A DNA stretch of 64,000 bases from a virus (IMGVR_UViG_3300042470_001171:1-64000), one strand, 5' to 3'. Counted from the first letter of the stretch, positions 6,601 to 37,891 are shown. Notes: a model not told the origin generated them from the sequence alone. A program made the numbers and translations.

Positions 6601-6740
6601 TCCCACTCCGGTGGGGGTTTCTCGACCACCGCCGCCTATATGGTGGACTTTGCCCCTCGCAAACACCTCCCCGCTTCGGTGGGGGTTTCTCGCTCTGACT
6701 GAGGCCTCAAAGCACACCCCACCACCGTGGGAGTCCTCAG
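6601..6740 (+). CRISPR. Mini-array A: 3 type I-E-like hairpin repeats, one 32-nt spacer and one short spacer
   Basis: CCCCAC-N4-GTGGGG plus GTTTCTCG handle; second repeat has TCGCAAACACCT extension. Confidence 0.8.
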
Positions 6741-7360
6741 CCAGCCTTAGCGATCCGCCATTGCTCGGCCAATGCGGCCATAAATTGCTCTGGATCCAGG
6801 CCCAGATCTACTGCCCTGGCCGCTAGCTCGGCTGCCGTGGCCGGGCTTAATTTTCCCTCAAGTTCGATCAGCTTTACCAGCGCCGTTGCTAGGCTACCAA
6901 TGGCCCGCAGGTCGCTGGTAGCCCGTGCATCACAGATCGACTGCACCACCTGCTCAATGGCTGTGCGCACATGCTCCAGGTTGGTCTTTTTGGTGCGGTA
7001 GCTGCCCAGGTCTGTCGCTGGCGGTGGTGGCGGTGCTGTCTTGGCCTTGTGGGGCACCTTTGCCGCCTCGCCTGGTGCATCCGCCATGGCTAGCTTTCTG
7101 GCCTGCCAGTCGCCTGCCTTGGCCCAGCCGCTGATCGTGGTATTGCCACAGCGGTCAAACCCTTCGCCCTTCAGCCGCCTGGATATTTCAGCCCATTGAG
7201 GCCCCAGCTCGCAGTACAACTCAAAGCCCCGTTCCTTGCAGGCTGGCGTAGCAGGCTGGCCGGAAGTCTTCACCACCTGCCGGTTGCCCCGCCTAGCACC
7301 AGGAGCTGGCTTGGGCGCATGCTTGGATCGTAGCTTTGGTGTAGGTTTCTTGGTTGCCAT
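6737..7360 (-). CDS. Putative terminase small subunit (HTH, Mu gp27/DUF1804-like)
   Basis: Basic N-terminus, FELY...EISRRL...TTISGWAKAGDW HTH pattern, helical C-terminus. Confidence 0.5.
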   Translation of the reverse strand: MATKKPTPKLRSKHAPKPAPGARRGNRQVVKTSGQPATPACKERGFELYCELGPQWAEISRRLKGEGFDRCGNTTISGWAKAGDWQARKLAMADAPGEAAKVPHKAKTAPPPPPATDLGSYRTKKTNLEHVRTAIEQVVQSICDARATSDLRAIGSLATALVKLIELEGKLSPATAAELAARAVDLGLDPEQFMAALAEQWRIAKAG

Positions 7361-7466
7361 GGATCCAGAATGCCCAGGCAACAAAAAACCCCAGCCGTGG
7401 CCGGGGTCGGAGTGGTGCATCTACAAAGCCTAATTTAACACGACTGGCTTATAGTTGGGTGTCAAA

Positions 7467-7648
7467 AGAAAAACCCCCACCAGTGTGGGGACTCGCCAGA
7501 GTCAAGAAGCACCCCCACCAGTATGGGGCGAGGGAGAGAACTCTGAAACATCCCCACCACTGTGGGGAAACATGCAACTATAGTTTGGATCCACCCCCAC
7601 CAAAATGGGGCTAGGTATTGTCATCGACACACCCCCACCAGCGTGGGG
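7467..7648 (-). CRISPR. Array B: 5 degenerate hairpin repeats with very short spacers (period 38-43 nt)
   Basis: Hairpins at 7475, 7513, 7552, 7595, 7633, each with a GT/AT-starting 8-nt handle on the minus strand. Confidence 0.75.
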
Positions 7649-7694
7649 CCACCGTCACCAAATTTTCAAGGTTCCTGTCCCCTACTATAGCACA
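7649..7694 (-). promoter_or_regulatory. CRISPR leader B: TGTGCTATAGT -10 and boxA GAACCTTGAAAA (7663-7674)
   Basis: Conserved among four arrays. Confidence 0.7.
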
Positions 7695-7705
7695 GTTAGC
7701 ACGGT

Positions 7706-8566
7706 TTAGCTAGCCGGTTCCAGTGAAACCACAACGCCAGCGGACTTGGTGGGAGTCAGCCTCAGCCAGACGCCGCCTAGGGACTTTGGCATGACGATCC
7801 GCTCCACCGCCCAGCCGTTGCCGCCCTGAAACTCCTCCTTGTAGGTGCCCGTCTGTACATGGTATCGGGGAGTTACCCGCACCTTGCCGGTTTCGATCAA
7901 CCGGTAGCAGGGGTGAGAAACGATGCTCCGCTCGTGATTGTGGCCATTGACGATCACATCAGCATCTGGTGCAATGCTGGCATACCGGCCACCGCCCATG
8001 GTGCCCTTGGTGACAATACCGCCCCAGGCCCCATGGTGGAAGAACAAGTTGCACCGCCGAACAGACTCGACGCCCTGACCCCGTTCCTTGTAGAACACAA
8101 ACCGAATCCAGCCCTGATAGCCCATGTGCTCGGTGATGGCCCCATGGCGGTCCCGCAGCTGCTGTACCACATTAGCCAGTGGGTCTATCTCCTGGTGGTT
8201 GATGATGGCTGTCTCATGGTTGCCGTTGCCCATCATCAGGATCTCCTGGCCGTAGGGTGCCAGAATGTCAGCGGACTCCTTGAATACCAAGTCGAAATAA
8301 TTGGCCCCCTGGTGCTCGGGGCGAATGCTGGCCTTGCTGCCGCGCCTGTCCCGCTTGCCCTGCATCAAGCACAGCACATCGCCAAAAAATAAGGCCCTGC
8401 CGTTGAGAGCCTTCATCTTTTCCAGGTGACTAAAAAATAGCTTGCGATCACATTTTGGGTTATCCAGGTGAATGTCGCTGGCCAGCAAAAAGTGATAGGC
8501 TTCCTCCCCGGTGTAGCGGATCCGGATTTCGAGGACTTCATCTGATAGTCGTCGCGTGGTTAGCAT
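7706..8566 (-). CDS. Calcineurin-like metallophosphoesterase
   Basis: SDIHLD, FGD, GNGNHE, HHG and GHNH motifs. Confidence 0.85.
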   Translation of the reverse strand: MLTTRRLSDEVLEIRIRYTGEEAYHFLLASDIHLDNPKCDRKLFFSHLEKMKALNGRALFFGDVLCLMQGKRDRRGSKASIRPEHQGANYFDLVFKESADILAPYGQEILMMGNGNHETAIINHQEIDPLANVVQQLRDRHGAITEHMGYQGWIRFVFYKERGQGVESVRRCNLFFHHGAWGGIVTKGTMGGGRYASIAPDADVIVNGHNHERSIVSHPCYRLIETGKVRVTPRYHVQTGTYKEEFQGGNGWAVERIVMPKSLGGVWLRLTPTKSAGVVVSLEPAS

Positions 8567-8603
8567 TTTGTTACAACCAGCACTATCTAAATAGTGCCCA
8601 AAA

Positions 8604-8631
8604 CAAAAACCCCAGCTTATAGCCGGGGTTT
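8604..8631. terminator. Intrinsic terminator hairpin
   Basis: AAAAACCCC...GGGGTTT stem with flanking A/T runs. Confidence 0.65.
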
Positions 8632-8649
8632 GGACGGCGCAAAAAAGGC

Positions 8650-8796
8650 TTACTTTTTGCGCTTTTTGTCTGCGTTTTCCGCTGCGGCAATGGCGATCAC
8701 AACGGCACCAGTTACGGCAAACAAAGCTGCATCAACTGGGCTGGCAATGCCTTGGCTGGCGGGCATGGGTAGATCGGCGGGTTGCATGGTGTTCAT
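8650..8796 (-). CDS. Small membrane protein (48 aa)
   Basis: CCACTTACAGAGGA leader before ATG; hydrophobic helix then basic tail. Confidence 0.55.
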   Translation of the reverse strand: MNTMQPADLPMPASQGIASPVDAALFAVTGAVVIAIAAAENADKKRKK

Positions 8797-8824
8797 GGTC
8801 TGTGGTCCTCTGTAAGTGGCCTGG

Positions 8825-9031
8825 TTAGTCTCCCCCCAGGGTGTTAAACGTGATCCGCTGGATGTCGCGGATCTTGACTTGGTTAGGCGATAGGGCGTGG
8901 ATCTGGGCTATTTGCAGCTGTGCAGCCGCCACAGCCATGCGAATATCTCCGCTAGCGATCTGGACAGTCGAACTGCCCTCCATCACCCCGCTTGCGTAAG
9001 CTTTCTGCCATTTAAAAACATAAGTCGCCAT
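8825..9031 (-). CDS. Hypothetical protein
   Basis: Leftward operon; GAGG upstream. Confidence 0.55.
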   Translation of the reverse strand: MATYVFKWQKAYASGVMEGSSTVQIASGDIRMAVAAAQLQIAQIHALSPNQVKIRDIQRITFNTLGGD

Positions 9032-9178
9032 ATCAATAAACCTCGTCTAGTTGTTGCTGTAGGGTCTCCTGCCAGCCCTGTTGCTGGCTTTGCTGTGCTT
9101 CCTGGCCTTGCTGCTGCTGTTGCCGTAGTTCCCGGCGTAGCTCGGCGGCCAGGGTATCGGCCAAAGACTTGCGTCGCT

Positions 9179-9385
9179 TCATGGCTCTTCCTCCAGCCGG
9201 GCTTGGTTCACCTTGGCCATTTCAGCAAACAGGGCAGCGGCTAAGTCACCCTGGAGGGCGTTGATACTGTTGTGCATCACGTTAGCCTCATCCATGGCGG
9301 ACTCCAGTTCACCCCGCCAGTAGGCCAAGTAGGCCAGCAGGCAGGCTAAGATCTCGGTGCGGGTAGGGTCAATGGGTAAGTTCAT
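9179..9385 (-). CDS. Hypothetical protein
   Basis: Leftward operon. Confidence 0.5.
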   Translation of the reverse strand: MNLPIDPTRTEILACLLAYLAYWRGELESAMDEANVMHNSINALQGDLAAALFAEMAKVNQARLEEEP

Positions 9386-9566
9386 GGTTATATCCCCAAA
9401 GATGGTAGGTTTCGGATCTGGGCTAGCACTAGCTCTAGTTCCTGCTGTGCATCCCCGTCTTCAGGGTGCCTAGCAATGATCTGGCGCATGTGGCTAGCTC
9501 TGGTATGCAGAAAAATGGATAGCTGCCCGGCCAGGCAGGGGCGTAGCCGGGCGGTGGTGGCGGCCA

Positions 9567-10202
9567 TTACTTTGAGCGGATCATTTGCTCTAGCTGGTCG
9601 CATTGCTCCGGCGTAAGCTGGTTGGGCGAAGTTGCGCCGAAGGTAGCCAGCATGGCTATCACTTCCTCGCGGCTAACGCCAAGGCTTTCCCGTATGTCCT
9701 GGATGCGTCGGTTTTGGTCCAGGGCGGCACCAGGGATAGTGTCAGCTTCGGTTTCGTCGAGCATCCCTAGCCCGCAGATCGACAGGGTAACCCGGCGCTT
9801 AGCTTTGGTCTCTGCCTTCATCAAGGCATTGGCCAACGCCTCACCAGAGAGGCCTTTGATGGGCACCACGCCGGTAGACTCATCTCGGCGGCCATAGGCG
9901 TTGGTGGCCCTAGCTAACACCACATAGCAGTCATCTACACGGGTACGCTCCACCAGCTCCACCGAAATGCCGTGGATGCTACGCAGTTGGTCGGTGGCGT
10001 CTTTCCGTGCGTACAAGGTTAGGCGGCCAGACAGTTTCAGATACTCGAAGGGCCTAGACAATGGGTTTAGGCCAACACTGCTACACAGAGCATTGTAATA
10101 GTTCATTCGCTCTGCTGGCGATAGTGCGGCCAAGTCCCCGTGGACTAGCACCTTTTCGAGGGTCTGGGCCTGGGCTTGAGGCTGGGCAATAATGTCAGTC
10201 AT
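9567..10202 (-). CDS. Phage ssDNA-annealing recombinase (RecT/Bet-like)
   Basis: GLNPLSRPFEY...LYARKDATDQLR...MKAETKAKRRVTLSICGLG; AGGAG RBS. Confidence 0.7.
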   Translation of the reverse strand: MTDIIAQPQAQAQTLEKVLVHGDLAALSPAERMNYYNALCSSVGLNPLSRPFEYLKLSGRLTLYARKDATDQLRSIHGISVELVERTRVDDCYVVLARATNAYGRRDESTGVVPIKGLSGEALANALMKAETKAKRRVTLSICGLGMLDETEADTIPGAALDQNRRIQDIRESLGVSREEVIAMLATFGATSPNQLTPEQCDQLEQMIRSK

Positions 10203-10241
10203 GGGTGGTTCTCCTAAGGGGCCCGGAGGCCCCAGCGTGGT

Positions 10242-10523
10242 TTAGAATTCGTCGTCAGCAAACGCTTCGGCCCGGACATCGGCGGGACACGATACGTCGC
10301 CCACCCTGGCCCCAGGGACTTCATCGGCGAAGATACCGGCTAGCTGAGTGGCTAGGAACACTTCACCACGGCCAGGAATGACCCGGACATGAAGGTTAAA
10401 CCATTCCCCGGAAGGGTAGATGACCTGGGCGACGTAAATTTTCACTCGGGGATCGTCGCTGATCGGCTCTTGGACTAGATCCAGCGCGGTGGGCTCGTAG
10501 CGTTCGATGGTAGTGGGATACAT
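10242..10523 (-). CDS. Hypothetical protein
   Basis: CCACTTACAGAGA leader. Confidence 0.6.
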   Translation of the reverse strand: MYPTTIERYEPTALDLVQEPISDDPRVKIYVAQVIYPSGEWFNLHVRVIPGRGEVFLATQLAGIFADEVPGARVGDVSCPADVRAEAFADDEF

Positions 10524-10594
10524 GGTGGTTCTCTGTAAGTGGTGTGGATGTGGCGGAACAGGAGGGGGCCAGCAAGTGCCAGCCCCAGGGGACT

Positions 10595-10903
10595 CTAGCC
10601 TAGGTGGCCCGGCTGAGGGGGACGGCCACCAGGGAACTGGTTCCGCTTGTCAGACTCAGCGCTAGCCACTACAGCGGTGCTGCGGCGGTTCGTGCAGGTG
10701 CCGTTCATGCACCGGGGGAATTGATCTCGGCTGGACTTGCTGAGTTGCTGGCTACCTTCCCGAGCACAGTCGGGATCCGAGCTGTAGCGCTCAGTCGGAC
10801 AGTGCCCGTCACCACGCAGTGCCACGGTGCTAGAGGCCAGAGAGGCGCCAGCGGGCAGGAACAGAGCAGCGGCCAGGACGGTTGCGGGGAAATGAAGTAA
10901 CAT
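10595..10903 (-). CDS. Hypothetical secreted Cys-containing protein
   Basis: Signal-peptide-like N-terminus; CCACTTAC leader. Confidence 0.5.
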   Translation of the reverse strand: MLLHFPATVLAAALFLPAGASLASSTVALRGDGHCPTERYSSDPDCAREGSQQLSKSSRDQFPRCMNGTCTNRRSTAVVASAESDKRNQFPGGRPPQPGHLG

Positions 10904-11184
10904 TAGGGAAGATCCTTTGTAAGTGGATTTAACTTAAGGGGCGAGTCGTTGGCGCGACGGACCCCTTTTCTCTGGGGTGACAGAACCCGGCTATTAGCTA
11001 GCGGTTGTTGGTTGCTGTCGATATTTCAATAGTAGGGCCTGGGCTTGGCATCTGTCAACTCATTAATAGCAATATTCTAATAGCTATCGCTTATAGGTAT
11101 CCCAAGAAAGCATCAGGTATTGTGCTACCCTGTTTTGGGAGATCTACGCGATAATTGGGAATGTCCAGCCAAGAGGAGATAACT

Positions 11185-11388
11185 ATGAAATCCCTAAGGG
11201 TGGCCTCCGGCCTCACTCAGGAGCAATTGGCGCGGAAGTTAGATATTTCCGTGTCTACCGTTCGCAATTGGGACGCTGGCAGATCGTTCCCTCACCTAAG
11301 CCCTGCAGCCATGGAAGCGCTAGCAGCAGCCCTGGGAACTGATCTGACGACTCTGGCAGCCGCCGAGCGAGCCCAGCGCAATGGCTAG
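11185..11388 (+). CDS. XRE-family HTH regulator (Cro-like)
   Basis: LRVASGLTQEQLARKLDISVSTVRNWDAG; GAGGAG RBS; at a divergence point. Confidence 0.85.
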   Translation: MKSLRVASGLTQEQLARKLDISVSTVRNWDAGRSFPHLSPAAMEALAAALGTDLTTLAAAERAQRNG

Positions 11389-11439
11389 AATGGCGGTGTT
11401 TTGTTGTTTTAGAACCCAACTAAAAGCCGCTGGCTATTT

Positions 11440-11527
11440 GCCCACAACAGTGGGCGTGTTTCGTGGGATCAAGGCTTTTCTGTGTCAAGAATGACGCATA
11501 CCACCCCACCGCCGTGGGGGTTATAAA
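11440..11527 (+). CRISPR. Two-repeat mini-array with one ~35-nt spacer downstream of the HTH gene
   Basis: GCCCAC-AACA-GTGGGC-GTGTTTCG ... CCCCAC-CGCC-GTGGGG-GT. Confidence 0.6.
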
Positions 11528-11573
11528 ACCCAACTCTAAGCCACAATCCACACATTTACAGAGAAAAACCACT

Positions 11574-11837
11574 ATGAAAGGCTGGACATTTATTCACAAC
11601 GGGAATGGCTACTGCCGTCCGGATCGGGAAGAGGTCGAAGAACTGCTTGCCGATCTAATCGAGAAAGACAAATTCTTTAAAAGGGAGTCAAAGTTTTCCT
11701 ACTGCGCCCCTGACGGCAGTCCTATCCAGTACGCCCAGGTGACGGTAGAGGAAGGCCACCTGATCAGCTACAAGGCAATTAAGCCACCCACCTCAAGAAC
11801 CCAACTAAAAGCCACCAGCCATCAGCCACACACTTAA
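11574..11837 (+). CDS. Hypothetical protein
   Basis: ATG after CACATTTACAGAGA leader. Confidence 0.55.
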   Translation: MKGWTFIHNGNGYCRPDREEVEELLADLIEKDKFFKRESKFSYCAPDGSPIQYAQVTVEEGHLISYKAIKPPTSRTQLKATSHQPHT

Positions 11838-11848
11838 AGACAACCGCC

Positions 11849-12448
11849 ATGCTGGCCAGACAACCCCTCGACTTCTATCCCACCCCCGGCCTGCTCACCT
11901 GGGCCTTGCTGGATAGCCATCGCTTTGTCCCCTGGCGCAACCAGGCCACCGTGCTGGAGCCCTGCAATGGCGAGGGTGCGATCAGCGATGTGCTGAAAGA
12001 ATCTGGCTTGTTCCGCCTGGTGGATACCGCCGACATTGATCCGGCCAAGACCAAGCCAGCAACCGCCATCGGTGCCACCAGCTTCACCATGGACGCCACC
12101 GATCCGCAAGCCTGGGCCCGGATGGCCCGCTACGACTGGGTGATCACGAACCCGCCCTACAACCAAGCCCCGGCGATCTTGCCATTGGCCTACGACAACT
12201 GCCGGGTGGGCATGGCCATGTTGTTGCGCCTCAGTTACCTGGAGCCCTGCAACAACCGGGCCCGCTGGCTGGCAGAACACCCGCCGGCCAAGCTGATCGT
12301 CTTTAACCCCCGGCCACGGTTCCGGGCGGATACAGTCGGCAGCGACTCGGTGACTAGCGCCTGGTTTATCTGGCACCGCTTCGGCAATAGCCAAGGGACT
12401 GAGCTTGAATTTTGTACTAACTGGAGAAACCATGGAACTGACAATTGA
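11849..12448 (+). CDS. Amino (N6-adenine/N4-cytosine) DNA methyltransferase
   Basis: DFYPTP, VLEPCNGEG (motif I), ITNPPY (motif IV). Confidence 0.8.
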   Translation: MLARQPLDFYPTPGLLTWALLDSHRFVPWRNQATVLEPCNGEGAISDVLKESGLFRLVDTADIDPAKTKPATAIGATSFTMDATDPQAWARMARYDWVITNPPYNQAPAILPLAYDNCRVGMAMLLRLSYLEPCNNRARWLAEHPPAKLIVFNPRPRFRADTVGSDSVTSAWFIWHRFGNSQGTELEFCTNWRNHGTDN

Positions 12449-13565
12449 CGCCAAAGGCCTAGCCGCTGTCCTGGCCCTGCCTAACCGGGCGGTGCCAAAC
12501 AGGCCCAGCAACCCTGTACTAACTAACCTGCTGCTCAATGCTGAGGGGGATACCCTGGCGGTGACAGGCAGTGACCTGGGAGCGGTGACCATCACCGCCA
12601 AGGCCAAGGCCAGCATTGCCGTAGAGGGCGAGATCCTGCTACCGGCCAAGCTACTCACCGATATGGTGGGGCGGATGGACGGGAACCTAGCGCTTAACTG
12701 GGATCCAGAAACCAGCCAGGCCACCATCAGCACTCTGGGAGGCAAGTATTCCCTATCCGGCCAGCCCGGGGAGGACTACCCGCTGATCGAGCGGGCAGAG
12801 GGCCAGCAGCTAACCATGGAGGCCAGCACCTTGGCCAGGGCACTAGAGTCCACGCTAGTCACCGCTAGCGATGACGAGAGTAAGCAGATCCTTTGTGGCG
12901 TTCACCTGCAACCCGTTGCCGATGGCCTCGAGGTTGCCTCCACCGATGGCCATCGCCTCAGCGTGTTCCCCGTGGCCCAGGAGGGCATTGAAGCATTTAC
13001 CCCTGTCACACTGCCTAGCAAAGGCCTGAAGGCCCTGAGTGGGCACCTGGGCAAGGCTGAGGGGATGGTGACGGTAACGCTAGACAACACCATCGCCACC
13101 TTTGACCTGGGTGGCCTGGTATTTACCACCCGGCTACTGGAGGGCCAGTATCCAGAGTACCGCCGACTCATCCCCCAGGCCTTTGTAGTGGAGACCCTGA
13201 TCAACCGGCAAGCCTGGATCGATGCCCTGAGCCGGATCATGGTGGTGGCTAGCCAAAAGCAAGGCATCATCAGGCACCAGTGGAATGACCAGGGACAGCT
13301 AGTGCTAGAAGCTGACGTACAAGGCTCTAGCGGGCGGGAGCTGGTTGACTGTGAGGCCAGCGAAGGCCAGGGTGAGGACGTGCTGGGCAAAGCTAAGAAT
13401 CCCATGGCCTTTAACGGCGACTACCTGCTGGATGGCCTCAAGGCCTTCGGCAGCGAGCAGGTGATCCTGCACACCAACACCCCGACCAGCCCAGCCACGA
13501 TCACCGCCCCCGGCAGCAGCCAGGTGTACCTGGTGATGCCAGTACAAATCAGGGACCAGATTTAG
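12432..13565 (+). CDS. dnaN: DNA polymerase III beta sliding clamp
   Basis: PVLTNLLL, GEDYP, STDGHRL, RLLEGQYPEY, YLVMPVQ; ~377 aa. Confidence 0.93.
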   Translation: MELTIDAKGLAAVLALPNRAVPNRPSNPVLTNLLLNAEGDTLAVTGSDLGAVTITAKAKASIAVEGEILLPAKLLTDMVGRMDGNLALNWDPETSQATISTLGGKYSLSGQPGEDYPLIERAEGQQLTMEASTLARALESTLVTASDDESKQILCGVHLQPVADGLEVASTDGHRLSVFPVAQEGIEAFTPVTLPSKGLKALSGHLGKAEGMVTVTLDNTIATFDLGGLVFTTRLLEGQYPEYRRLIPQAFVVETLINRQAWIDALSRIMVVASQKQGIIRHQWNDQGQLVLEADVQGSSGRELVDCEASEGQGEDVLGKAKNPMAFNGDYLLDGLKAFGSEQVILHTNTPTSPATITAPGSSQVYLVMPVQIRDQI

Positions 13566-13593
13566 ACCACACACTTACAGAGGAGACAAGACC

Positions 13594-14177: not shown

Positions 14178-14210
14178 ATGAGACGACAGATCCCACCACC
14201 GTGGGAGTGC

Positions 14211-14234
14211 CTACGGGCACGTTTGAGAGTTAAA
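14211..14234 (+). repeat. Solitary CRISPR-like hairpin at the end of the dnaN-ssb operon
   Basis: TCCCAC-CACC-GTGGGA-GT, just upstream of a terminator. Confidence 0.55.
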
Positions 14235-14308
14235 AACCCCGGCATAAGCTGGGGTTTTTATTGCCAGTTATTGACTGAGTTATTGATCATTCCGATCAAT
14301 TCTTGGCC

Positions 14309-17350: not shown

Positions 17351-18030
17351 GCGGAAACTCCCACGATGGTGGGGTATAGGATAGGTACGGGCTGGAGGAA
17401 CGCCCACTAGAGTGGGGAATGCCAAGCCCAGTTTCACGCTGGAGCGATAGGGGCAAGACTCACCCCCACCAAAGTGGGGAGGTGTTTGCGAGGTGACGGG
17501 TCAGGCTAGCAAACTGGCCCTAACCGAGAAACCCCCACCGGAGTGGGGAGGTGTTTGCGAGTTAAGGGTGCTGGCGCGGTGCCTGACACTGACGAAAGGG
17601 AAAAACCCCCACCGAAGCGGGGAGGTGTTTGCGAATGCCGAGTCAATCGTGGTGGGCCTAACAGCTACCCCGGAGAAACCCCCACCGAAGCGGGGAGGTG
17701 TTTGCGAGCAGTGGGATCGGCACATTCAACGTCGGAGCGGTGGTCGATCAACCCCCACCGGAGTGGGGAAGTGTTTACCAGGCTGTTGTAAACGGGTTTC
17801 CGGCACATAGAAAAACCCCCACGAGGGTGGGGATACTGTGTTTCAGCCACCTCAAGGGCCAGGGGCGTGATAGGATAAACCCCCACCGAAGTGGGGAGGT
17901 GTTTGCGCTTGGGCACCGTGGCGCAATACGGCTTTTTCTCGGAGAAACCCCCACCAAAGCGGGGAGGTGTTTGCGAGAGGGTGCCCTATGGGCTGTCACT
18001 ATCGGCAGAAAAACCCCCACCGGAGTGGGT
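17351..18030 (-). CRISPR. Array C: 11 hairpin repeats; consensus TCGCAAACACCTCCCCACTTCGGTGGGGGTTTCTC(G/C); mostly 28-38 nt spacers
   Basis: Repeat anchors at 17462, 17531, 17605, 17678, 17751, 17815, 17879, 17947, 18013, plus degenerate hairpins near 17359 and 17402; unique spacers. Confidence 0.92.
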
Positions 18031-18082
18031 CCACCGTCACCTACCACCAAATTTTCAAAGTTCTTGCCCCCACTATAGCACA
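18031..18082 (-). promoter_or_regulatory. CRISPR leader C: TGTGCTATAGT -10, boxA-like GAACTTTGAAAA, GGTGACGGTGG
   Basis: Conserved among four arrays. Confidence 0.75.
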
Positions 18083-18150
18083 AAGCTGGCCAGTTGGTGC
18101 AGGCAAAGCAAACCCCCGGCGAGGGCCAGGGGTGGCAGGCAGGCTAGGGG

Positions 18151-19320: not shown

Positions 19321-19423
19321 TGGCACACTCCCACCAAGTGGGAAGTAGGGGATACCGACATAGGATCCACTCCCACGCTGGTGGGGCCTCTTCATGCAGT
19401 GATCCACTCCCACCGCAGTGGGT
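19321..19423 (-). CRISPR. Array D: 3 hairpins with short spacers immediately downstream of cas5
   Basis: CCCAC-N3/4-GTGGGA-GTG... x3. Confidence 0.7.
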
Positions 19424-19429
19424 ATCGCG

Positions 19430-19876
19430 CTAGGCCTCCTCCCGGGCAACAGCCCAGATCGGGCCAGACGGGACACAATTACGCCGTCCTAGGTATAGCT
19501 GGAATTTAGGCCGGGCCAGCGCCTTGGCAATGGTGCGGATCTGCTGCAAGTCACCCCGCAGGGTAACGGTAGAACTGAAGTCGCTCAGGTAGTGCCGGGT
19601 GGTGATGGCATTGCGGCCTGGGGCCCCGTCATAGGTGATAGCATCGCGGATGGTGTGGAAGTCCTCCAACACTCCGCCATGGCTTGTCTCGCCTATCTCC
19701 ACCTGCAGCCCGTCCAGTTCCGGCGCTGACTGGCCTCGACGTATCCCCAGGGCAGCACACAACATGCCGCGGATCGCCGACTCAGTTGGGGCATCCTCCG
19801 TCAGTCGTTGCTGCAGCCGTGGCCCGGTGCCATAGGCAGCCATGGGGCCTGCTAGCTTCAGGACTAGCCTAGGCAT
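19430..19876 (-). CDS. cas5e: Type I-E Cas5 (short, 148 aa)
   Basis: LKLAGPMAAYG...R.T...PTESAIRGMLCAALG...DFHT...RHYLSD...LYLGRRNCVPS. Confidence 0.9.
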   Translation of the reverse strand: MPRLVLKLAGPMAAYGTGPRLQQRLTEDAPTESAIRGMLCAALGIRRGQSAPELDGLQVEIGETSHGGVLEDFHTIRDAITYDGAPGRNAITTRHYLSDFSSTVTLRGDLQQIRTIAKALARPKFQLYLGRRNCVPSGPIWAVAREEA

Positions 19877-21122
19877 AGGCCACCTCCTTGCCAGCACCCA
19901 TGGCTACTTGCAGGGCCCCATCAATGGCCCCGTCCAGGGGCTGGCCGAACCAGCCTGGCTGGGTAGTCACTTCAGCTTTGTACAGCGACTTGTCGCCGTA
20001 GATGACGTTTAGCCGGTCCTGGTACTGGCGCAGCGCATCAGCGGCCTGGTGCGGGATACCCTGGGCTAGGAAGTCGTCGTCGGTGGTGCAGCTATTGATT
20101 GACACATGGAATGCCGGTGCCAAGGTGTAAGGCTGAGCCGCTGTCACCCGCACCTGCACATAGTCTGGCCGAGTTAGATGGGCATGGCTGCGCACATAGC
20201 CAGTCGGCAGGGTAGTGCAGAATGCTGTCAGGAATCCCCGGGCAAACTGCTGGGCCAGCTCGGGGTCGCCGATCAAGCGGGCCAGCTCAGTGACATTCAG
20301 GTTGGCATAGCGGTAGTAGACGGGCGAGATGATGGGCAGCTCCCCCAGGTGGCCAGCGCCAGACTTAGATTCCTCATCCAAGGGTTCAATGTCATCTTCG
20401 GCGGTGAAAAAGTCCGGCTCACCAATCACTTGGCCCATGCCCTTGACATTGGTGATACCAAAGGAATTAACCGAGATCGCATCCGCCACTTGGGTGCAGC
20501 CATCGACGCTGGCCTCAGTCAGGCTAGCCATCATCCGGCCAAACAGTGCGACATCCCCTGGTACTTGCTGGCCTAGCTTGCCCAGAGCTTTGCGGATGCC
20601 CTGCAAATCCCTGGCGCTAGGTTTTTCAGGCGCTGGAGCCTTCTTGGGGTTTATATCCAAAGCCTCCTGGTAACGCTGGGCCCGCTCCAGCATATCTCCC
20701 AGTAGCACCGAATGATCGGCGGCCAGAGCGGCAATGGTGTCCAGCTCATGCTCAGACAGGAATAACAGGTTGCCGCTATCCTCCAGCATGGCCGGGATCA
20801 GGTTGTCGTCTTTGAGGTTGAACAAGCCCAACAAGAACCGAGCCACCATCAAGTTATCAGCGTCACCGCCCAAAAAGCCAGTGCAGCAGCAGGATAGGCG
20901 ACTGGCCAGGGCGACGTCATGGCGACGGCTGCGGAAAGCCAAGGCCTTGCGGTCAACGGCCATCCATTCCCCATAGTGTTGCCGGGCGGCCCGTTTCTGG
21001 GACTGGCTGGAGAGCCGGGCCCGCCAGCTACCACCGTATTGGATCTTTTTGGGTGCCCCGGACTTGTCCCGGTTGGCATTGCTGGGCGGTAAAGCGTGGA
21101 TCAGGTGCACTTCGATAAACAT
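19869..21122 (-). CDS. cas7e: Type I-E Cas7 (Cse4/CasC)
   Basis: PSNANRDKSGAPK...GG...RARLSSQSQKR; DVALFGRM; DFFTAEDD; GAGHLG...YYRYA. Confidence 0.95.
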   Translation of the reverse strand: MFIEVHLIHALPPSNANRDKSGAPKKIQYGGSWRARLSSQSQKRAARQHYGEWMAVDRKALAFRSRRHDVALASRLSCCCTGFLGGDADNLMVARFLLGLFNLKDDNLIPAMLEDSGNLLFLSEHELDTIAALAADHSVLLGDMLERAQRYQEALDINPKKAPAPEKPSARDLQGIRKALGKLGQQVPGDVALFGRMMASLTEASVDGCTQVADAISVNSFGITNVKGMGQVIGEPDFFTAEDDIEPLDEESKSGAGHLGELPIISPVYYRYANLNVTELARLIGDPELAQQFARGFLTAFCTTLPTGYVRSHAHLTRPDYVQVRVTAAQPYTLAPAFHVSINSCTTDDDFLAQGIPHQAADALRQYQDRLNVIYGDKSLYKAEVTTQPGWFGQPLDGAIDGALQVAMGAGKEVAYA

Positions 21123-21150: not shown

Positions 21151-21288
21151 GTGGCCACCCCCACCGCCGTGGGGCCTTTTTGGTTGTCGATCCACACCCA
21201 CCGGAGTAGGTTGTATGACGTGTCTGTGCAGGAGACACCCCCACCGGAGTGGGGCCACTGCTCAGCCCTGAGACACCCCCACCAATGC
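21151..21288 (-). CRISPR. Array E: 3 hairpins plus a partial one in the cas6-cas7 junction
   Basis: Hairpins at 21159, 21196, 21239 and a half repeat at 21277 inside the cas6 3' end. Confidence 0.75.
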
Positions 21289-21876
21289 TGGCGCGGGCTC
21301 AGGCGTAGTCACCGCCGCCACCGGCAGCAACGACAGCAGGCCGCAGCCGTACGCCTTTTCCCGGCCAATGCCGTTGACCATGGCATCAGCTAGCCGCTGG
21401 CTATGGGTCACCGTCAGATACCCGTCCACTACCGATACCTCAATGGGGAATGAACGAGTGTAATGCTCACGGCGCACATGATCATGGTGTTTTTGCACTC
21501 GCACCTGGCGCACCTCGAAGGTAGCACCTAGCCGATCCTCCCTGGCGGCCAGCCACTCAGCGGCAGGCACCGGATAGCGCCGACACCGGTCATCCCGGTT
21601 ACTTTGGGCCACAGAGTTGAGCCCCAGGCGGAAGCGGTAACGCTCCCCAACATTAAGCAGGTTATGCCTAAACTCCAGCTTCACCTGGGCCTCATAGGCT
21701 TTAGGCCACTTGGGCTTTTCTACCGACTGCACCAGGATGGATCCGCCGTCAACCCGGAACAATGCCCCGACTTGGCTGCGGGGGTCTGGGCCCAGATCGT
21801 CAGGAAAGCCCGCCATCACATAGCGGTGCAGGCTTCCATGGCCATCTGGCCGGGCAAAACGAGAAAGGTATAGCAT
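21262..21876 (-). CDS. cas6e: Type I-E Cas6 (Cse3/CasE)
   Basis: YLSR, HRYVMAGFP, LFRVD, LVQS...P.W, YRFRL, C-terminal GIGREKAYGCGLL G-loop. Confidence 0.93.
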   Translation of the reverse strand: MLYLSRFARPDGHGSLHRYVMAGFPDDLGPDPRSQVGALFRVDGGSILVQSVEKPKWPKAYEAQVKLEFRHNLLNVGERYRFRLGLNSVAQSNRDDRCRRYPVPAAEWLAAREDRLGATFEVRQVRVQKHHDHVRREHYTRSFPIEVSVVDGYLTVTHSQRLADAMVNGIGREKAYGCGLLSLLPVAAVTTPEPAPALVGVSQG

Positions 21877-23778: not shown

Positions 23779-23855
23779 ATCGCCAACCCCCCACCCCTCC
23801 CGCAGACCCCGGCCCCATGGCTGGGGTTTTTGCTTGGGCAGCTATGGCCAGCCTT

Positions 23856-23907
23856 GTGCTATAGTGTTGGCAGGAACCTTGACAACTTGGTGGTAGGTGA
23901 CGGTGGA
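23856..23907 (+). promoter_or_regulatory. CRISPR leader F: TGTGCTATAGT -10, boxA-like GAACCTTGACAA, GGTGACGGTGG
   Basis: Conserved among four arrays. Confidence 0.75.
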
Positions 23908-24492
23908 TCCCACTTCGGTGGGGGTTTTTCGTACCCCCGACAGGGCCTTAACGGCGCGTGGCAAACAGCTCCCCACTTTGGTGGGGGTTTTTCTTTTTTC
24001 TAGCCACGATCAACGGGCTGAGCGACTCGCAAACACCGCCCCACTTCGGTGGGGGTTTCTCCCGTGTGACAGCGCATTCCTTTTCATCCCCGCCTTGGTG
24101 GGGGTGTGTCGATTTGCGGTTAACTCATGCACCCCACCCCCGTGGGAGTCTGTCTGCCATTGCCCGGGCCAGCCAGCTAGCCCCACCACTGTGGGGGTGG
24201 GTCAAGCGGATCCCGTCAGCCCCACAGCGTGGGGGTTTCTCCTGTTACCGGTCATGCCCACCATCGTGGGAGTCTGTCCCTACAAAAATCAGCCCATTCC
24301 GGTGGGAGTCTGTCACCCTGGCTCAGCTACCTAGCCCCACCAGCGTGGGGGTGTCTCGGCTGATTTTGAGGCGGGCGTGGCGGTATCGGTCACCTAGCCC
24401 CACCAGCGTGGGGGTGTCTCGCCTTCGCCTCACGATCCCCACCAGCGTGGGAGTGGATCTTGACAGCCCTTAGCCCACCCCGTGGGAGTCTA
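23908..24492 (+). CRISPR. Array F: about 13 hairpin repeats; two tagged long spacers, then mostly short spacers
   Basis: CCCCAC-N3/4-GTGGG(G/A)-GT recurring at irregular ~36-68 nt spacing. Confidence 0.85.
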
Positions 24493-24634
24493 TATGTACT
24501 ACTTAAATACACCATGTATTCGTTTGCCTCCAAGGAAATTGTATCCGCAACTTTTCAAACCTGCACACCGCAAGGGTTTAGCGCCTTACCTCTAAAAGAT
24601 AATAGGCATTAATTCCCCCAGGCCATTTTTTAGC

Positions 24635-25600: not shown

Positions 25601-25680
25601 TGGCACACTCCCACCACAGTGGGATCCGCCTGCAGCAGTCCAGCGACACACCTCCACGACACACCCCCACCGCAGCGGGG
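25601..25680 (-). CRISPR. Two-repeat mini-array directly after the ATPase stop codon
   Basis: CCCCGC-TGCG-GTGGGG-GTGTGTCG, 32-nt interval, TCCCAC-TGTG-GTGGGA-GTGTGCCA. Confidence 0.65.
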
Positions 25681-25686
25681 AACCTG

Positions 25687-28551: not shown

Positions 28552-28618
28552 CCGCTCACCCCCACAATGGTGGGGCAATTAAAGCGCTTCAGCAGGATCC
28601 ACCCCCACTGGCGTGGGG
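28552..28618 (-). CRISPR. Two-repeat mini-array inside the Tra-like operon
   Basis: CCCCAC-GCCA-GTGGGG-GTGGATCC, 19-nt interval, CCCCAC-CATT-GTGGGG-GTG. Confidence 0.7.
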
Positions 28619-28625
28619 CTTGGCC

Positions 28626-32394: not shown

Positions 32395-32445
32395 CCCTGT
32401 CTTGTGTTCCCTTCCCCTATCCACCCTCACACCCAAGGAGTTCCT

Positions 32446-33366
32446 ATGGGCGCAACCTTACACCCCGTATTCCAGCGGGAATCCATGATCTGGCAAAGCA
32501 TTCTGACCGCCAACGAAAAGCTATTGCTGCTTTGCCTCAACTCGTTCCTAGGCGCTGATGGCCGATGCTTCCCCAGCATTGCCACCATGAGCCGGATGAC
32601 TGGCCTCAGTCGCAGCACGACTAACCGCACCCTGGCCCTACTCGAAGACCAAGCCATCATCAACAGCCAGCAACGCTACCGCGATGACGGCAGCCAGACC
32701 GCCAGTGATCGGTTCCTGGATTTTGATGCCATTCCAATGGCCAAACCGGATCCAGATCCAGCCGAAAATCAAGGCGGGGGGGTATGTCAAAATGACATGG
32801 GGGTGTGTCAGGATGACATGGGGGTGTGTCACAGTGAAACGGGGGGGGTGTCAGACTGGGAGGGGGGGGGTGTCAGCTTGACACACCAAGAACTATCCAG
32901 AAGAACTATCCAGAAGAACTATCTAGATCTTTTCCCCCCTACCCCCCGTTCAGAAAAAAAAGGGAAAAAAGAAACCAGCAAGCTGGATCCGGAAAGAACT
33001 GTTGCGCCGCCCGCCGCCGCGCCGGTGGCCGCAGTGGATCCATCCAAGCCTGATCCATTCGCGGCCCAGTTTGCGCCCAGGCCGTGGCGGGAGAATGGGT
33101 GGGGCAAGATCTTGCCAAAGTTCTGCGAGTTCATGGTTGCTGGCAAGCACATTGTTGTTGACGGGCAGATGAACCCTAAGACGAAGGCGATGTACCATGT
33201 GTCAAACTTGGAGCGAGATGGCAAATGGGATAAACTGGAATATCTCTGGGCTGAGTACCAAGCCAGCCTGCAGCCAGCCAGGCCAAAGGCTAAGCTGGCC
33301 ACGGAAAGCTATGACGAGCGGGTGCGTCGGGAGATGAACCAACACCAACAGAGGGAACACGCATGA
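32446..33366 (+). CDS. Phage replication initiator (N-terminal winged HTH, lambda O-like position)
   Basis: CFPSIATMSRMTGLSRSTTNRTLALLE; internal iterons; directly upstream of dnaB. Confidence 0.8.
   Translation: MGATLHPVFQRESMIWQSILTANEKLLLLCLNSFLGADGRCFPSIATMSRMTGLSRSTTNRTLALLEDQAIINSQQRYRDDGSQTASDRFLDFDAIPMAKPDPDPAENQGGGVCQNDMGVCQDDMGVCHSETGGVSDWEGGGVSLTHQELSRRTIQKNYLDLFPPTPRSEKKGKKETSKLDPERTVAPPAAAPVAAVDPSKPDPFAAQFAPRPWRENGWGKILPKFCEFMVAGKHIVVDGQMNPKTKAMYHVSNLERDGKWDKLEYLWAEYQASLQPARPKAKLATESYDERVRREMNQHQQREHA
32776..32970. repeat. Putative origin: five GGGGGxxTGTCA iterons at 21-bp period, followed by an A-rich tract
   Basis: TGTCA at 32785, 32806, 32827, 32849, 32871; GAACTATCCAGAA duplicated; A-runs at 32954-32974. 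Confidence 0.75.
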
Positions 33367-36298: not shown

Positions 36299-36522
36299 AC
36301 CTAGCCCGACAACTGGCGGCCTATTGCACCGCCAACCCTGAAGAAACCAGCCGACTGGTGGAGGTCGCCATTGGCTACCTGCTAGAGCAGGCTAGCCCGG
36401 AGAACCTGCAAGCCATGGCAGCGCTGATGCCCAGGTCAGAGCCAGGGGCATCGTTGGCCTTGAGCCTGCGGATACTGGCTGAGGACAGGCGGACCTCGCC
36501 CTTTAGCCTGGGAGGGAAGTGA
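36295..36522 (+). CDS. Hypothetical protein
   Basis: Overlapping start/stop codons. Confidence 0.55.
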   Translation: MNLARQLAAYCTANPEETSRLVEVAIGYLLEQASPENLQAMAALMPRSEPGASLALSLRILAEDRRTSPFSLGGK

Positions 36523-37445
36523 TGAACTACTACAACGAAAATGATCCCCAAGCGTCGGCATGGTTGAAGGAGTTGATAGCTCAGGGCGCTTTGCCGGATG
36601 GCGTTGTTGACGATAGGAGCATTGAGGATGTCACTCCAATTGAGCTTGAGCCTTACGTCCAATGCCACTTCTTCGCCGGTATCGGCGGGTGGCCCTATGC
36701 CTTGCAACTTGCCGGATGGCCAGAGGACCGACCCGTATGGACCGGTAGTTGCCCATGCCAGCCTTTCAGCGCGGCAGGCAAAGGAGCGGGGACTGCTGAT
36801 GAGCGGCACCTATGGCCAGCGTTCTTTTGGCTCATTAGCCAGTGTCGCCCTGAGATCGTCTTTGGTGAGCAGGTTGCATCAAGCGATGCCCTTGGATGGT
36901 GGGATGTTGTATCAACTGACCTGGAAGCAGCGGACTACGCCTGCGGGGGAGTCGATCTATGCGCTGCGGGCGTCGGCGCGTTCCATCTGCGCCAGCGACT
37001 GTACTGGGTTGGCACCTTGGTCAACACCCCAAGCCAAGGACAACAAGGGCGGCTACAGCCGTCGGTGGGTGGAGAACGTTCACGGGCGATCTCTCAACGA
37101 TCAGGTGATGTTAGTTCCCTGGCCAACCCCGGCGGCCAGGGATTGGAAATCGAGCGCCAGCAACAAACATGGGGACAATGCCAGACCCTTGAACGAGGTA
37201 GCCAAGCTAACCCATGGCGACACCCCGACTGGCTCCCCTGCCGAGACGGCAAAGCCCGGCCAGCTCAATCCGGCATTTTCCCGTTGGTTAATGGGGTTCC
37301 CGCCGATCTGGTGTGTGGCAGCAATCCTGGCATGCCGGCAAATGAAACGGCGGAAGCCAGAACCATGAGGCTACGCGGCTACGGAAACGCCATCGTTCCC
37401 CAGCTAGCCGCCCAGTTTATTGCAGCAGTCATGAGAGGCAAATAG
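36519..37445 (+). CDS. C5-cytosine DNA methyltransferase, large (alpha-like) polypeptide
   Basis: FFAGIGG, GSCPCQPFS, GEQV, HLRQRLYW, GYGNAIV; no motif IX in frame. Confidence 0.88.
   Translation: MMNYYNENDPQASAWLKELIAQGALPDGVVDDRSIEDVTPIELEPYVQCHFFAGIGGWPYALQLAGWPEDRPVWTGSCPCQPFSAAGKGAGTADERHLWPAFFWLISQCRPEIVFGEQVASSDALGWWDVVSTDLEAADYACGGVDLCAAGVGAFHLRQRLYWVGTLVNTPSQGQQGRLQPSVGGERSRAISQRSGDVSSLANPGGQGLEIERQQQTWGQCQTLERGSQANPWRHPDWLPCRDGKARPAQSGIFPLVNGVPADLVCGSNPGMPANETAEARTMRLRGYGNAIVPQLAAQFIAAVMRGK
36598..37368 (+). CDS. Nested alternative-frame ORF: putative beta polypeptide carrying motif IX (start uncertain)
   Basis: WPTPAARDWK and GQLNPAFSRWLMGFP. Confidence 0.6.
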   Translation: MALLTIGALRMSLQLSLSLTSNATSSPVSAGGPMPCNLPDGQRTDPYGPVVAHASLSARQAKERGLLMSGTYGQRSFGSLASVALRSSLVSRLHQAMPLDGGMLYQLTWKQRTTPAGESIYALRASARSICASDCTGLAPWSTPQAKDNKGGYSRRWVENVHGRSLNDQVMLVPWPTPAARDWKSSASNKHGDNARPLNEVAKLTHGDTPTGSPAETAKPGQLNPAFSRWLMGFPPIWCVAAILACRQMKRRKPEP

Positions 37446-37447
37446 CC

Positions 37448-37645
37448 ATGCAACTAAGCTCCCAGGCAAAGGCCACATTCCGCAAAGGCATTGCCCGCAC
37501 CAAAGCCGCCCAGGCTGCGGCCAAGGAGCTAGCCGCCCTGGTGCTAGCCCAGCCAGACGCCCCGCCAGCCATGCAGGCCCTGGCCCGGCAGGTGCTTGAT
37601 CCGGTGGTGGTGGTAATGGAGGAAGAGCAGCAGGACGCGGCGTAG
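37448..37645 (+). CDS. Hypothetical protein
   Basis: Last gene of operon before array H. Confidence 0.55.
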   Translation: MQLSSQAKATFRKGIARTKAAQAAAKELAALVLAQPDAPPAMQALARQVLDPVVVVMEEEQQDAA

Positions 37646-37651
37646 GCCAGG

Positions 37652-37891
37652 CCCCACGGGTGTGGGGGTGAGTCTTGCGACTCTTGAGGCCCACTGCGGT
37701 GGGGGTGTCTCGACTTGGGGAAAGGTGCCCCACCAAGTGGGGGTGAGTCGAGATGGCGGGGAGGCCCACTGCGGTGGGGGTGAGTCGGTTTAGCTCCTGT
37801 GCCCCACTAGGTGGGGGTGACTCCTACAGGGTTATGGTGTCCCACGGGGTGGGGGTGGCTCAGTAGCCTTTGAGGCCCCACGGGGTGGGGG
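37652..37891 (+). CRISPR. Array H: 7 hairpin repeats with 12-15 nt intervals, right after the replication operon
   Basis: (C/G)CCCAC-N3/4-GTGGGG-GTG at ~36-38 nt period with unique intervening sequence. Confidence 0.8.

Follow-up and report, generated by a model that had tools for sequence, protein, structure and literature searches.

A family of hairpins recurs at 11 loci in a phage sequence comprising bases 1 to 64,000 (the window) of a 72,813-bp IMG/VR virus record (IMGVR_UViG_3300042470_001171; G000), whose estimated completeness is 79%. We consider it probable that the phage has a CRISPR-Cas system of its own, with these hairpins as its repeats, and that mini-arrays of the hairpins lying in operons release short guides for Cascade-like complexes that lack Cas3. 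Judged by sequence, the units with 12 to 25 nucleotides (nt) between repeats are most likely real guides that are co-transcribed with phage operons, and not mere processing sites. The repeat family, its strand, the constraint on its handle, its gene context, the accompanying set of cas genes and the periodic selection on spacers were all observed directly.

Sequences of the form CCCCAC-N3-GTGGG occur 9 times on the two strands against 0.08 expected, and CCCCAC-N4-GTGGG 49 times against 0.12 expected; neither count was reached in any of 100 shuffles. A catalogue search for 5-bp stems, with one pairing-preserving change allowed and loops of 3 to 5 nt, yielded 55 hairpins on the 72,813-bp contig. 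Three of them lie at 72229-72320, and 52 lie in the window (26 on each strand, all within 6602-37889). For a covariance model covering hairpin and handle, 46 units served as the training set, and these match it by construction; the model was run with filters off. It recovers 51 of the 52 window hairpins at E <= 0.02, each on one strand, and adds one degenerate match at 21269-21300; the 52nd hairpin, a terminal one at 37876-37891, has E 0.13. Matches that contain the handle score 21 to 36 bits, and matches on the opposite strand are confined to the hairpin and score at most 14.2 bits. From 38 to 64 kb, which holds 26 kb of late and structural genes, the model found nothing better than E 0.1. 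Approximately 50 to 60 units each were found in two related phage records, G001 (74,186 bp, with direct terminal repeats; Cas6e 93% identical to that of G000) and G002 (77,534 bp; Cas6e 69% identical), and none in an unrelated jumbo-phage type I-E locus (L018) or in locus L007. CheckV puts the completeness of the three records at 69-79%.

Each unit comprises a basal pair (usually C-G), the stem arm CCCAC, a loop of 3 or 4 nt, GTGGG, the handle G-T-N-N-N-T-C-N and then the spacer. The stem has 6 bp, 5 of which are invariant, and its 3' arm GTGGG is invariant; by comparison, 31 distinct loops occur among the 55 hairpins and 27 distinct handles among the 43 internal units. In long units, the stem is preceded by an additional 12-nt tag (TCGCAAACACCT or a variant of it), the handle is GTTTYTC, and spacers measure approximately 30 to 38 nt after removal of the tag. 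These units represent an extended, near-identical 36-nt repeat and occupy the leader-proximal parts of arrays A, C and F (Table 1), where spacer length is uniform. Short units are tag-free, have GTG- or GTC-type handles and vary from 12 to 25 nt between the handle and the next stem; these units make up array B, the distal part of array F and nearly all leaderless clusters. Half repeats are present inside some spacers.

An earlier, sequence-only reading of this DNA had reported about 50 Cas6-type hairpins at 11 loci, whose loops and handles differ between copies while the stem is kept. The catalogue bears this out: the motif is far above shuffles, all eleven loci were found (with one start, 14211, corrected to 14191), and the hairpins are Cas6e-type repeats with a cognate, intact-looking cas6e gene in the same phage. 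The covariance-model scan that had been proposed as a check on orientation assigns one strand to every hairpin. The contrast drawn with the near-identical repeats made by Cas1-Cas2 applies to the short units, but not to the long units, which have near-identical 36-nt repeats and turnover of spacers at the leader end.

The stem variants bear on whether the element is RNA. In the five inner pairs, all 225 cells contain standard pairs, 10 of which are wobble pairs, a count that is biased because the stem search demanded pairing; the strand call agrees with the covariance-model scores. Variant stems are changed on the 5' arm in 10 of 10 cases in G000 and in 7 of 7 in G001. Such a change leaves the handle strand paired through a wobble, and the opposite strand would then contain an A-C mismatch. 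For G002, 8 of 10 listed variants are changed on the 5' arm, and the other two are one exception (7321-7346, 3' arm) and one probable false match. When single units were folded, four of the five tested formed the local hairpin, at -7.7 to -13.3 kcal/mol.

It is scarcely conceivable that the hairpins are instead intrinsic terminators, members of a repetitive extragenic palindromic (REP)-like or miniature inverted-repeat transposable element (MITE)-like family that the host also carries, or DNA palindromes bound by a dimeric protein. Some units with GTTTTTC-type or T-rich handles were flagged as terminator-like, and the stem reads alike on both strands. However, most handles (GTG..TC and GTC..TC) contain no T run and were not classed as terminators, and ordinary terminators are present elsewhere in the phage. 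Moreover, the variation between 3- and 4-nt loops and the wobble changes on one arm point to RNA rather than to a DNA palindrome, and relatives have regular arrays of the same repeat beside cas genes.

The phage carries cas genes of its own (Table 1), and its Cas6e, Cas7e and Cas5e all exceed the respective NCBIfam cut-offs. As in type I-E systems, whose repeats are Cas6e substrates, a GC-rich 6-bp stem, a tetraloop and an 8-nt handle are accompanied by cognate Cas6e, Cas7e and Cas5e genes. The LHR motif of Cas6e contains His17, which we take to be the catalytic His. Four homologues, the most distant of them 37% identical, all retain this residue, and its counterpart in a solved Cse3 (chain 5u07_A) is the His of NLHRKL; the phage Cas6e looks catalytically intact from these alignments. 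All 30 Atlas look-alikes of the short Cse1-like protein carry CRISPR_Cse1, and this protein is 41% identical (E 5e-52) to a 300-amino-acid (aa) protein of metagenome contig L025 that itself matches PF09481 above the cut-off. Searches of the three phage records detected no Cas1 (PF01867; Cas2 was not searched), no Cas3 core (TIGR01587, which was detected in control genomes) and no Cse2 (Cas11). PADLOC, applied to 10 of approximately 109 open reading frames (ORFs), identified no further cas gene, and no DinG or transposase partner occurs among the ORFs examined. The phage-owned system is, as judged by homology, derived from type I-E, and consists of Cas6e, Cas7, a short Cas5 and a short Cse1-like large subunit, with neither Cas3 nor an adaptation module. 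Unlike type I-E, it has no Cas3, Cas1 or Cse2, and its Cas5 and Cse1 are short. Also unlike type I-E, its repeats are dispersed at 12 loci with arrays inside operons, their loops and handle positions 3-5 and 8 are free, and most of its spacers measure 12-25 nt versus approximately 32 nt.

The Cas7 matches listed include 19 clusters at 82% identity or more, and a metagenome scan found relatives whose Cas7 is 37-48% identical to that of the phage. Two metagenome fragments (L022 and L024, Cas7 48% identical) contain regular arrays of a uniform repeat. The 109-kb contig L025, which encodes ParA and ParB and a Cas7 41% identical to the phage protein, has loop-variable arrays, a pair of hairpins immediately upstream of cas6e, and an 8-unit array between cas7 and cas5 (11232-11694) in which every repeat has a different loop. 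Given this layout, arrays inside operons are, by this comparison, a lineage trait. In three other loci (L029, L031 and L032), cellular-type I-E arrays closely resemble the phage units in the stem, and their handle agrees with some phage handles at 6 of 8 letters. When genome contigs were searched with Cas7, one weak alphaproteobacterial match was found; the nearest named cellular Cas7 among the matches listed is from Parathermosynechococcus (33% identity).

Evidence that the RNA between hairpins has a function of its own comes from the handle. Its letters G1, U2, U6 and C7 are invariant in all 128 internal units of the three phages, and are lost in most terminal hairpins. For example, U6-C7 is present in 43/43 internal versus 1/12 terminal hairpins in G000 (Fisher p = 1e-10), 39/39 versus 2/13 in G001 and 46/46 versus 4/17 in G002. 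The handle is kept only where a downstream unit follows, and therefore serves the following RNA rather than the hairpin or its cleavage.

Spacer evolution provides a second line of evidence. Substitutions were counted in 22 families of orthologous short spacers drawn from eight sequences (three genomes and five metagenome fragments). At positions 1 to 12 after the 8-nt handle, we counted 2, 0, 0, 0, 0, 9, 3, 1, 2, 3, 3 and 7 events. Positions 6 and 12 account for 16 of the 30 events (binomial p = 4.8e-6), in families that were picked at 5'-anchored identity of at least 70%, that include close relatives and that offer few events. When the 17 equal-length families alone are used, 11 of 18 events fall at these positions (p = 2.8e-5). 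Position 6 varies in 8 of the 22 families and positions 2-5 in none, and the register of the relaxed positions 6 and 12 fits an 8-nt handle. According to excerpts of PMC5904413, bases 1-5 and 7-8 make up the type I-E seed, and the duplex has a flipped-out base at every sixth position. The substitution pattern of the short spacers is, on sequence grounds, this pattern of Cascade seed and flipped bases, as in E. coli Cascade (PMC5904413, in excerpt). Linker RNA, decoys or dead arrays would not evolve with relaxed positions 6 and 12.

Unit lengths are stepped as well. Distances from handle to next stem are grouped at 12-16, 19-21 and 24-25 nt, lengths of 17-18 or 22-23 nt are absent, and the period-6 Rayleigh R for short units is 0.56; for long units, length periodicity was not significant in the three phages (p = 0.16). 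Type I complexes hold one Cas7 per six bases of guide, and length steps of six therefore fit. Excerpts of bioRxiv 10.1101/2024.10.29.618823 state this ratio for type I-F, and describe viral RNAs resembling CRISPR RNAs (crRNAs), with 17-21-nt spacers, that form complexes with fewer Cas7 subunits.

Comparison of the phages reveals how the arrays change. In array C, three trailer units are identical between G000 and G001, and 7 and 4 leader-proximal spacers differ; as far as this comparison goes, it is the polarity of a living array, though the phage encodes no Cas1. Short units have been gained or lost as whole units, and phages that differ in loops and free handle letters share some short spacers letter for letter over 13-20 nt. 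The arrays might be decaying, nonfunctional remnants of adaptive CRISPR arrays whose spacers were lost by deletion, which could explain why Cas1 was not found, why half repeats lie inside some spacers and why whole units come and go. This explanation is very unlikely, as positions, stems, handles and many short spacers have been kept despite divergence of Cas6e to 69% identity, and the strict handle constraint and periodic substitutions show ongoing selection.

Seven window loci have no leader. At six of them, the first hairpin lies 6-13 nt past a same-strand stop codon, and at the seventh it lies 51 nt past. The shorter gaps are too short to accommodate a promoter, and so the leaderless clusters must ride on the transcript of the upstream gene, unless a promoter is located inside the 3' end of that gene. 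All seven are co-oriented with the upstream gene, an arrangement that random orientation would give with a chance of 1 in 128. G001 and G002 have the leaderless loci at corresponding positions, and the sequence upstream of them is conserved. Near-consensus promoters (TTGACA-N17/18-TATATT, each 11/12) occur in six copies, beginning at 14347, 14686, 15099 and 23424 on the plus strand and at 19289 and 25569 on the minus strand. Two of them directly follow clusters, namely those behind cas5 (TTGACA-N18-TATATT at 19289-19260, after cluster 19321-19425) and behind the ATPase gene (25569-25541, after cluster 25601-25682), and these clusters therefore mark the ends of transcription units.

The remaining four window arrays (6601, 7467, 17353 and 23906) have a common leader cassette that consists of an extended -10 element (TGTGCTATAGT), a boxA-like word and the first hairpin. 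The word GAACCTTGAAAA is exact before array B and has one mismatch before array C and before array F, and lies 15-22 nt ahead of the first hairpin; no boxA-type signal was found at the leaderless mini-arrays. The excerpted text of bioRxiv 10.1101/2021.01.08.426015 gives this word as the boxA in the 16S-23S spacers of cyanobacteria. The only hints of a cyanobacterial host are this word and the Parathermosynechococcus Cas7.

Given this context, the hairpins could be processing or stability sites only, at which Cas6e matures operons and caps 3' ends, while the stretches between hairpins have no guide function. We regard this as improbable. In its favour, clusters lie 6-13 nt past stop codons at six loci, the cluster between cas6e and cas7 could uncouple expression of these genes, and targets were not found in the phage genomes or in 81 loci. 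Type I-E Cas6e stays bound to its product hairpin; Cas6-family sites have been used as insulators in synthetic operons, and Cas6 cleavage has been built into synthetic biology as operon processing. Yet for such a purpose one hairpin would suffice, and the clusters have 2-7; U6-C7 is kept in 128/128 internal units and lost in most terminal hairpins; spacer substitutions favour positions 6 and 12 and avoid positions 2-5; and some spacers are identical between phages that differ in loops. The sequence-only reading had offered two proposals, that the phage Cas6 processes RNA genome-wide and/or that each operon releases its own crRNAs. The extent claimed in the former is contradicted by the 26 kb of late and structural genes in which the covariance model has no matches. 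The latter fits the handle constraint and the 6-nt spacer periodicity better, with mRNA cutting as a by-product or second use. That reading had placed the seven leaderless loci within approximately 5-55 nt of a same-strand stop codon, in agreement with the 6-51 nt measured, and had described them as always co-oriented with the gene upstream, which is true of 7/7 in the window but not of the twelfth cluster, at 72229-72320.

We therefore return to short guides released from operons. For these, we infer cleavage, loading, stoichiometry, binding without cutting and target identity, in the following scheme. Mini-arrays located in a 3' untranslated region or in an intercistronic gap would be transcribed within the mRNA of the upstream gene, including that of the cas operon. 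The phage Cas6e would cut at the 3' base of every stem, which would leave a hairpin at the 3' end of the upstream mRNA and free crRNA-like RNAs of 36-49 nt, each with an 8-nt handle, a 12-25-nt guide and a hairpin. These RNAs would load into small Cascade-like complexes with approximately 2-4 Cas7 subunits, and the complexes would bind conserved targets through the seed, without cleavage by Cas3. Guides that bind without Cas3 cleavage would therefore be fixed regulators or blockers rather than agents of adaptive immunity, and their supply would be tied to the operon that carries the mini-array. For E. coli Cascade, 5 bp of seed pairing is enough for binding, and interference needs more than 18 bp (PMC5904413, in excerpt).

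More tentatively, the phage lineage may possess a CRISPR regulatory circuit, in which dozens of fixed, operon-wired guides of 12-25 nt are excised by Cas6e and act in nuclease-free Cascades with approximately 2, 3 or 4 Cas7 subunits, the number stepping with guide length. The complexes might bind conserved promoters or genes, either in the host or in rival phages, such that the set of repressors follows the phage transcription programme, and the same cuts might set mRNA ends and the Cas6e:Cas7 ratio. We think this elaboration possible, and less probable than the release of short guides itself.

Several observations weigh against short guides from operons, in addition to the biased wobble count and the small, selected sample of spacer families noted above. 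The cluster at 72229-72320 is antisense to both of its neighbours, and thus transcription together with an upstream gene does not apply to every cluster. When whole clusters are folded at minimum energy, arms pair between units (z = -2.3 and -1.8), a result that is not informative, since such cross-pairing is expected for any array of palindromic repeats. A complex without Cas11 and with truncated Cas5 and Cse1 would have a putative assembly. Excerpts of bioRxiv 10.1101/2024.10.29.618823 describe type I guides of 17-27 nt, longer than the 12-15-nt guides proposed here. Four metatranscriptome runs were compared with 6001-26000; all consist of contigs, a form of data that does not show RNA ends, strand or level, and DNA carry-over is possible. 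Contigs of runs X17 and X18, both from one study, match arrays C and F and the cas genes at 99-100% identity, and a few end near clusters (19430, 21147/21164 and 23902/23904), from which we draw no inference. Finally, exact matches of short guides within the phage are at chance level, a target search with the periodic pattern returned 19 matches versus 11.2 in shuffles, without orthologous co-variation, and no significant spacer match was found in 81 metagenome or viral loci (mostly flanks of Cas7-homologue genes).

Other target searches covered promoters, long spacers and phage databases. No promoter target was found in the phage genomes or the 81 loci; crRNA-like regulators are marked by complementarity of at least 9 bp, proximal to a protospacer-adjacent motif (PAM), to the promoter of a cas or toxin gene. 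GenBank phages gave two chance-level matches to array C and no match to 6000-30000. Exact scans of IMG/VR with three spacers, which miss imperfect targets, gave 0, 0 and only G002 itself. Ungapped comparison of 48 long spacers with the three phages gave no match above 21/28, a score reached 11 times versus 3 times for shuffled spacers. For most spacers, these searches detected no viral target.

Two spacers match phage genes. A spacer of array F (24156-24176) matches the Cse1-like gene at 23273-23293, in the conserved part coding for WAIARASL, with 19/21 identities in G000 and 18/19 in G001. Similarly, a G002 spacer matches the exonuclease gene adjoining its own array, with 26/27 identities in G000 and 25/27 in G002 (G002 22093-22119 and 22530-22560). 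In both cases, the matched gene lies a few hundred bases upstream on the same strand, and the phage's own copy has 1-2 mismatches. These matches suggest self-regulation or rivalry with relatives. Two further candidates were rejected: guide-target co-variation for the 72-kb guide, as the sites are non-orthologous, and a 15-nt match of a G002 spacer to cas7, which is at chance level given approximately 130 queries.

Alternatively, the units could be anti-CRISPR RNAs, either Racr-like decoys or Cracr-like regulators, that load the host's type I-E Cascade and poison it or redirect it to host cas or toxin promoters. The cellular-type arrays of L029, L031 and L032, with their very similar stem and with 6/8 handle letters in common with some phage handles, are in keeping with this idea; viral Cracr arrays with short spacers and fewer Cas7 are documented in excerpts of bioRxiv 10.1101/2024.10.29.618823; and periodic selection also fits guides that use a host Cascade. 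Nonetheless, we judge this explanation unlikely. Documented Cracr arrays hold 2-3 spacers, versus approximately 45 per genome here (bioRxiv 10.1101/2024.10.29.618823, in excerpt). No phage spacer matches the 81 loci above chance, a pure decoy would not conserve seed positions, and the phage has its own Cas6e, Cas7, Cas5 and Cse1-like genes and need not borrow host proteins. Also, if the host is a freshwater picocyanobacterium, it may, to our knowledge, have no CRISPR-Cas.

Short guides supplied to a Cascade of the phage's own resemble several known systems in part; Shmakov et al. (bioRxiv 10.1101/2023.03.03.530964, PMC10120712), for example, have reportedly worked on crRNA-like regulatory RNAs. 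Like the phage units, CreA/CreR and viral Cracrs have mini-arrays, degenerate repeats and shortened spacers, and excerpts of bioRxiv 10.1101/2024.10.29.618823 report that they form complexes with fewer Cas7, act by binding and not cutting, and in some cases lie inside cas operons. According to the same excerpts, viral Cracrs use host Cas proteins and target host cas or toxin promoters, their arrays hold 2-3 spacers of 17-24 nt, and Table S2 lists 219 viral candidates from RefSeq and IMG/VR, which may include this phage group. In contrast, the phage brings its own Cascade, has approximately 45 units per genome versus 1-3 per crRNA-like array documented in those excerpts, has spacers down to 12 nt and embeds its units behind unrelated phage genes. 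Racrs and solitary viral repeat units are likewise repeat-like hairpins in viral genomes outside classical arrays (PMC10651486 and PMC11656645, in excerpt). Racrs are solitary and mimic host repeats, and with a type I-F Racr, host Cas6f and Cas7f end up trapped in an aberrant subcomplex (PMC11656645, in excerpt). By comparison, the phage units are tandem rather than solitary and have conserved seed-bearing spacers and phage cas genes.

Virus-borne mini-CRISPR arrays take part in inter-virus conflicts, and two phage spacers match genes of their own phage group; unlike the phage arrays, the mini-arrays described in excerpts of PMC11656645 use host repeats and host Cas proteins and have 1-2 spacers. 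Type IV-A systems and CRISPR-associated transposons, from the same excerpts, are also mobile-element effectors without Cas3 or adaptation genes that likely act by binding, but the phage proteins belong to the type I-E family, not to Csf. The phage system differs from these known kinds by its virus-owned Cascade, by its approximately 45 units at 12 loci, most of them in the 3' ends of unrelated operons, and by its guides down to 12 nt. Literature searches aimed at such arrangements, together with main-text excerpts of PMC10910872 and PMC11656645, yielded no description of guides embedded in operons or of natural operon processing by Cas6.

If this interpretation is correct, CRISPR guides can be written into the untranslated ends of mRNAs without a dedicated array, and each operon exports its own small guides. 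A virus can then retain a type I-E Cascade that lacks Cas3 and put it to fixed, non-adaptive use; guides of only 12-15 nt are under seed-type selection in nature, and Cas6 cleavage can double as operon processing. In addition, substitutions that pile up at every sixth position offer a computational test for a working type I guide between repeats. Near-identical DNA was detected in 18 lake-water or freshwater runs (each with at least half of the sampled words). The phage group is present in many lake metagenomes, and experimental material should therefore exist.

Table 1. Hairpin loci and cas genes of the phage, in order of position. Locus starts in parentheses are those of the hairpin catalogue.
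Feature	Position	Strand	Hairpins (locus start)	Details
Array A	6545..6740	+	3 (6601)	own leader, from ~6545 (approximate); hairpins 6599-6624, 6667-6692 and 6715-6740; one tagged long unit and one 24-nt unit; antisense to both minus-strand neighbour genes
Array B	7467..7696	-	5 (7467)	leader with exact boxA-like GAACCTTGAAAA at 7663-7674; spacers 14-19 nt; downstream, a promoter-like site, then gene 6737-7420
Leaderless mini-array	11438..11522	+	2 (11440)	one 40-nt spacer; 51 nt past stop of HTH_3 gene 11155-11388
Single hairpin	14189..14214	+	1 (14191)	13 nt past stop of ORF 13896-14177, itself behind ssb (13594-13983)
Array C	17353..18085	-	11 (17353)	leader with boxA-like site 18052-18063 (1 mismatch); eight long units, plus 38-nt and 19-nt units at trailer end
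Leaderless mini-array	19321..19425	-	3 (19321)	spacers 13 and 19 nt; 6 nt past cas5 stop
cas5e (short, 155 aa)	19430..19897	-		TIGR01868 107.9 bits, cut-off 68.95; profile positions 3-159 of 230
cas7e (Cse4/CasC), 417 aa	19869..21122	-		PF09344 E 1.3e-67; TIGR01869 184.2 bits, cut-off 178.05
Mini-array between cas6e and cas7	21151..21300	-	3 (21151)	spacers 19 and 13 nt; 7 nt past cas6e stop; degenerate match inside cas6e 3' end; last hairpin 36 nt before cas7 start
cas6e (Cse3/CasE), 204 aa	21262..21876	-		PF08798 E 1.6e-31; TIGR01907 52.2 bits, cut-off 45.2
First gene of cas operon, 214 aa	21876..22520	-		weak look-alike to PD-(D/E)XK nucleases, a lead only
Short Cse1/Cas8e-like gene, 315 aa	22462..23409	+		divergent from cas operon
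Array F	23854..24495	+	13 (23906)	leader with extended -10 at ~23854-23865 and boxA-like word 23874-23885; two long units, then units of 12-25 nt plus one of 39 nt
Leaderless mini-array	25601..25682	-	2 (25601)	one 32-nt spacer with half repeat; 6 nt past stop of ATPase gene 25687-26985
Leaderless mini-array	28557..28620	-	2 (28557)	19-nt spacer; 7 nt past stop of ORF 28626-29048
Leaderless mini-array	37650..37891	+	7 (37650)	spacers 13-15 nt; 7 nt past stop of 65-aa ORF 37448-37645, the last of the replication and methyltransferase operon
Twelfth cluster, outside window	72229..72320	+ (handles)	3	between two minus-strand genes; ends 1 nt from stop codon of ORF 72323-72784; kept in G001 and G002

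Several sequence features were noted near the arrays. The word ACCCAACT-N-TAAGCC is present at 7440-7460 (-), 11410-11430 (+) and 11523-11540 (+), where it adjoins the last hairpins of array B and flanks the cluster behind the helix-turn-helix (HTH) gene, and may be an operator. A fourth boxA-like word (one mismatch) lies at 28358-28369 (-), in the 5' part of ORF 27951-28430 and approximately 190 nt downstream of the cluster at 28557-28620. Convergent with array F is a gene at 24635-25114 (-) that resembles BrnA and ribbon-helix-helix antitoxins (BrnA 25.9 bits, cut-off 26.1; RHH_1 above its cut-off).

Elsewhere, G000 encodes head-morphogenesis proteins, a serine integrase, a tyrosine integrase, DnaB, SSB, a DNA polymerase III beta clamp and a sigma factor. 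The tyrosine integrase gene (16309-17316, +) is convergent with array C, and the large serine integrase gene is at 62391-63704 (+). Tandem repeats of 126 nt (5.2 copies, 94% matches) at 1-654 form the start of a 1,232-aa ORF. Inside the HTH_36 gene (32404-33366), just before DnaB, tandem 21-22-nt repeats (approximately 3.6 copies) and 13-nt repeats at 32778-32927 look like the iterons of a replication origin.

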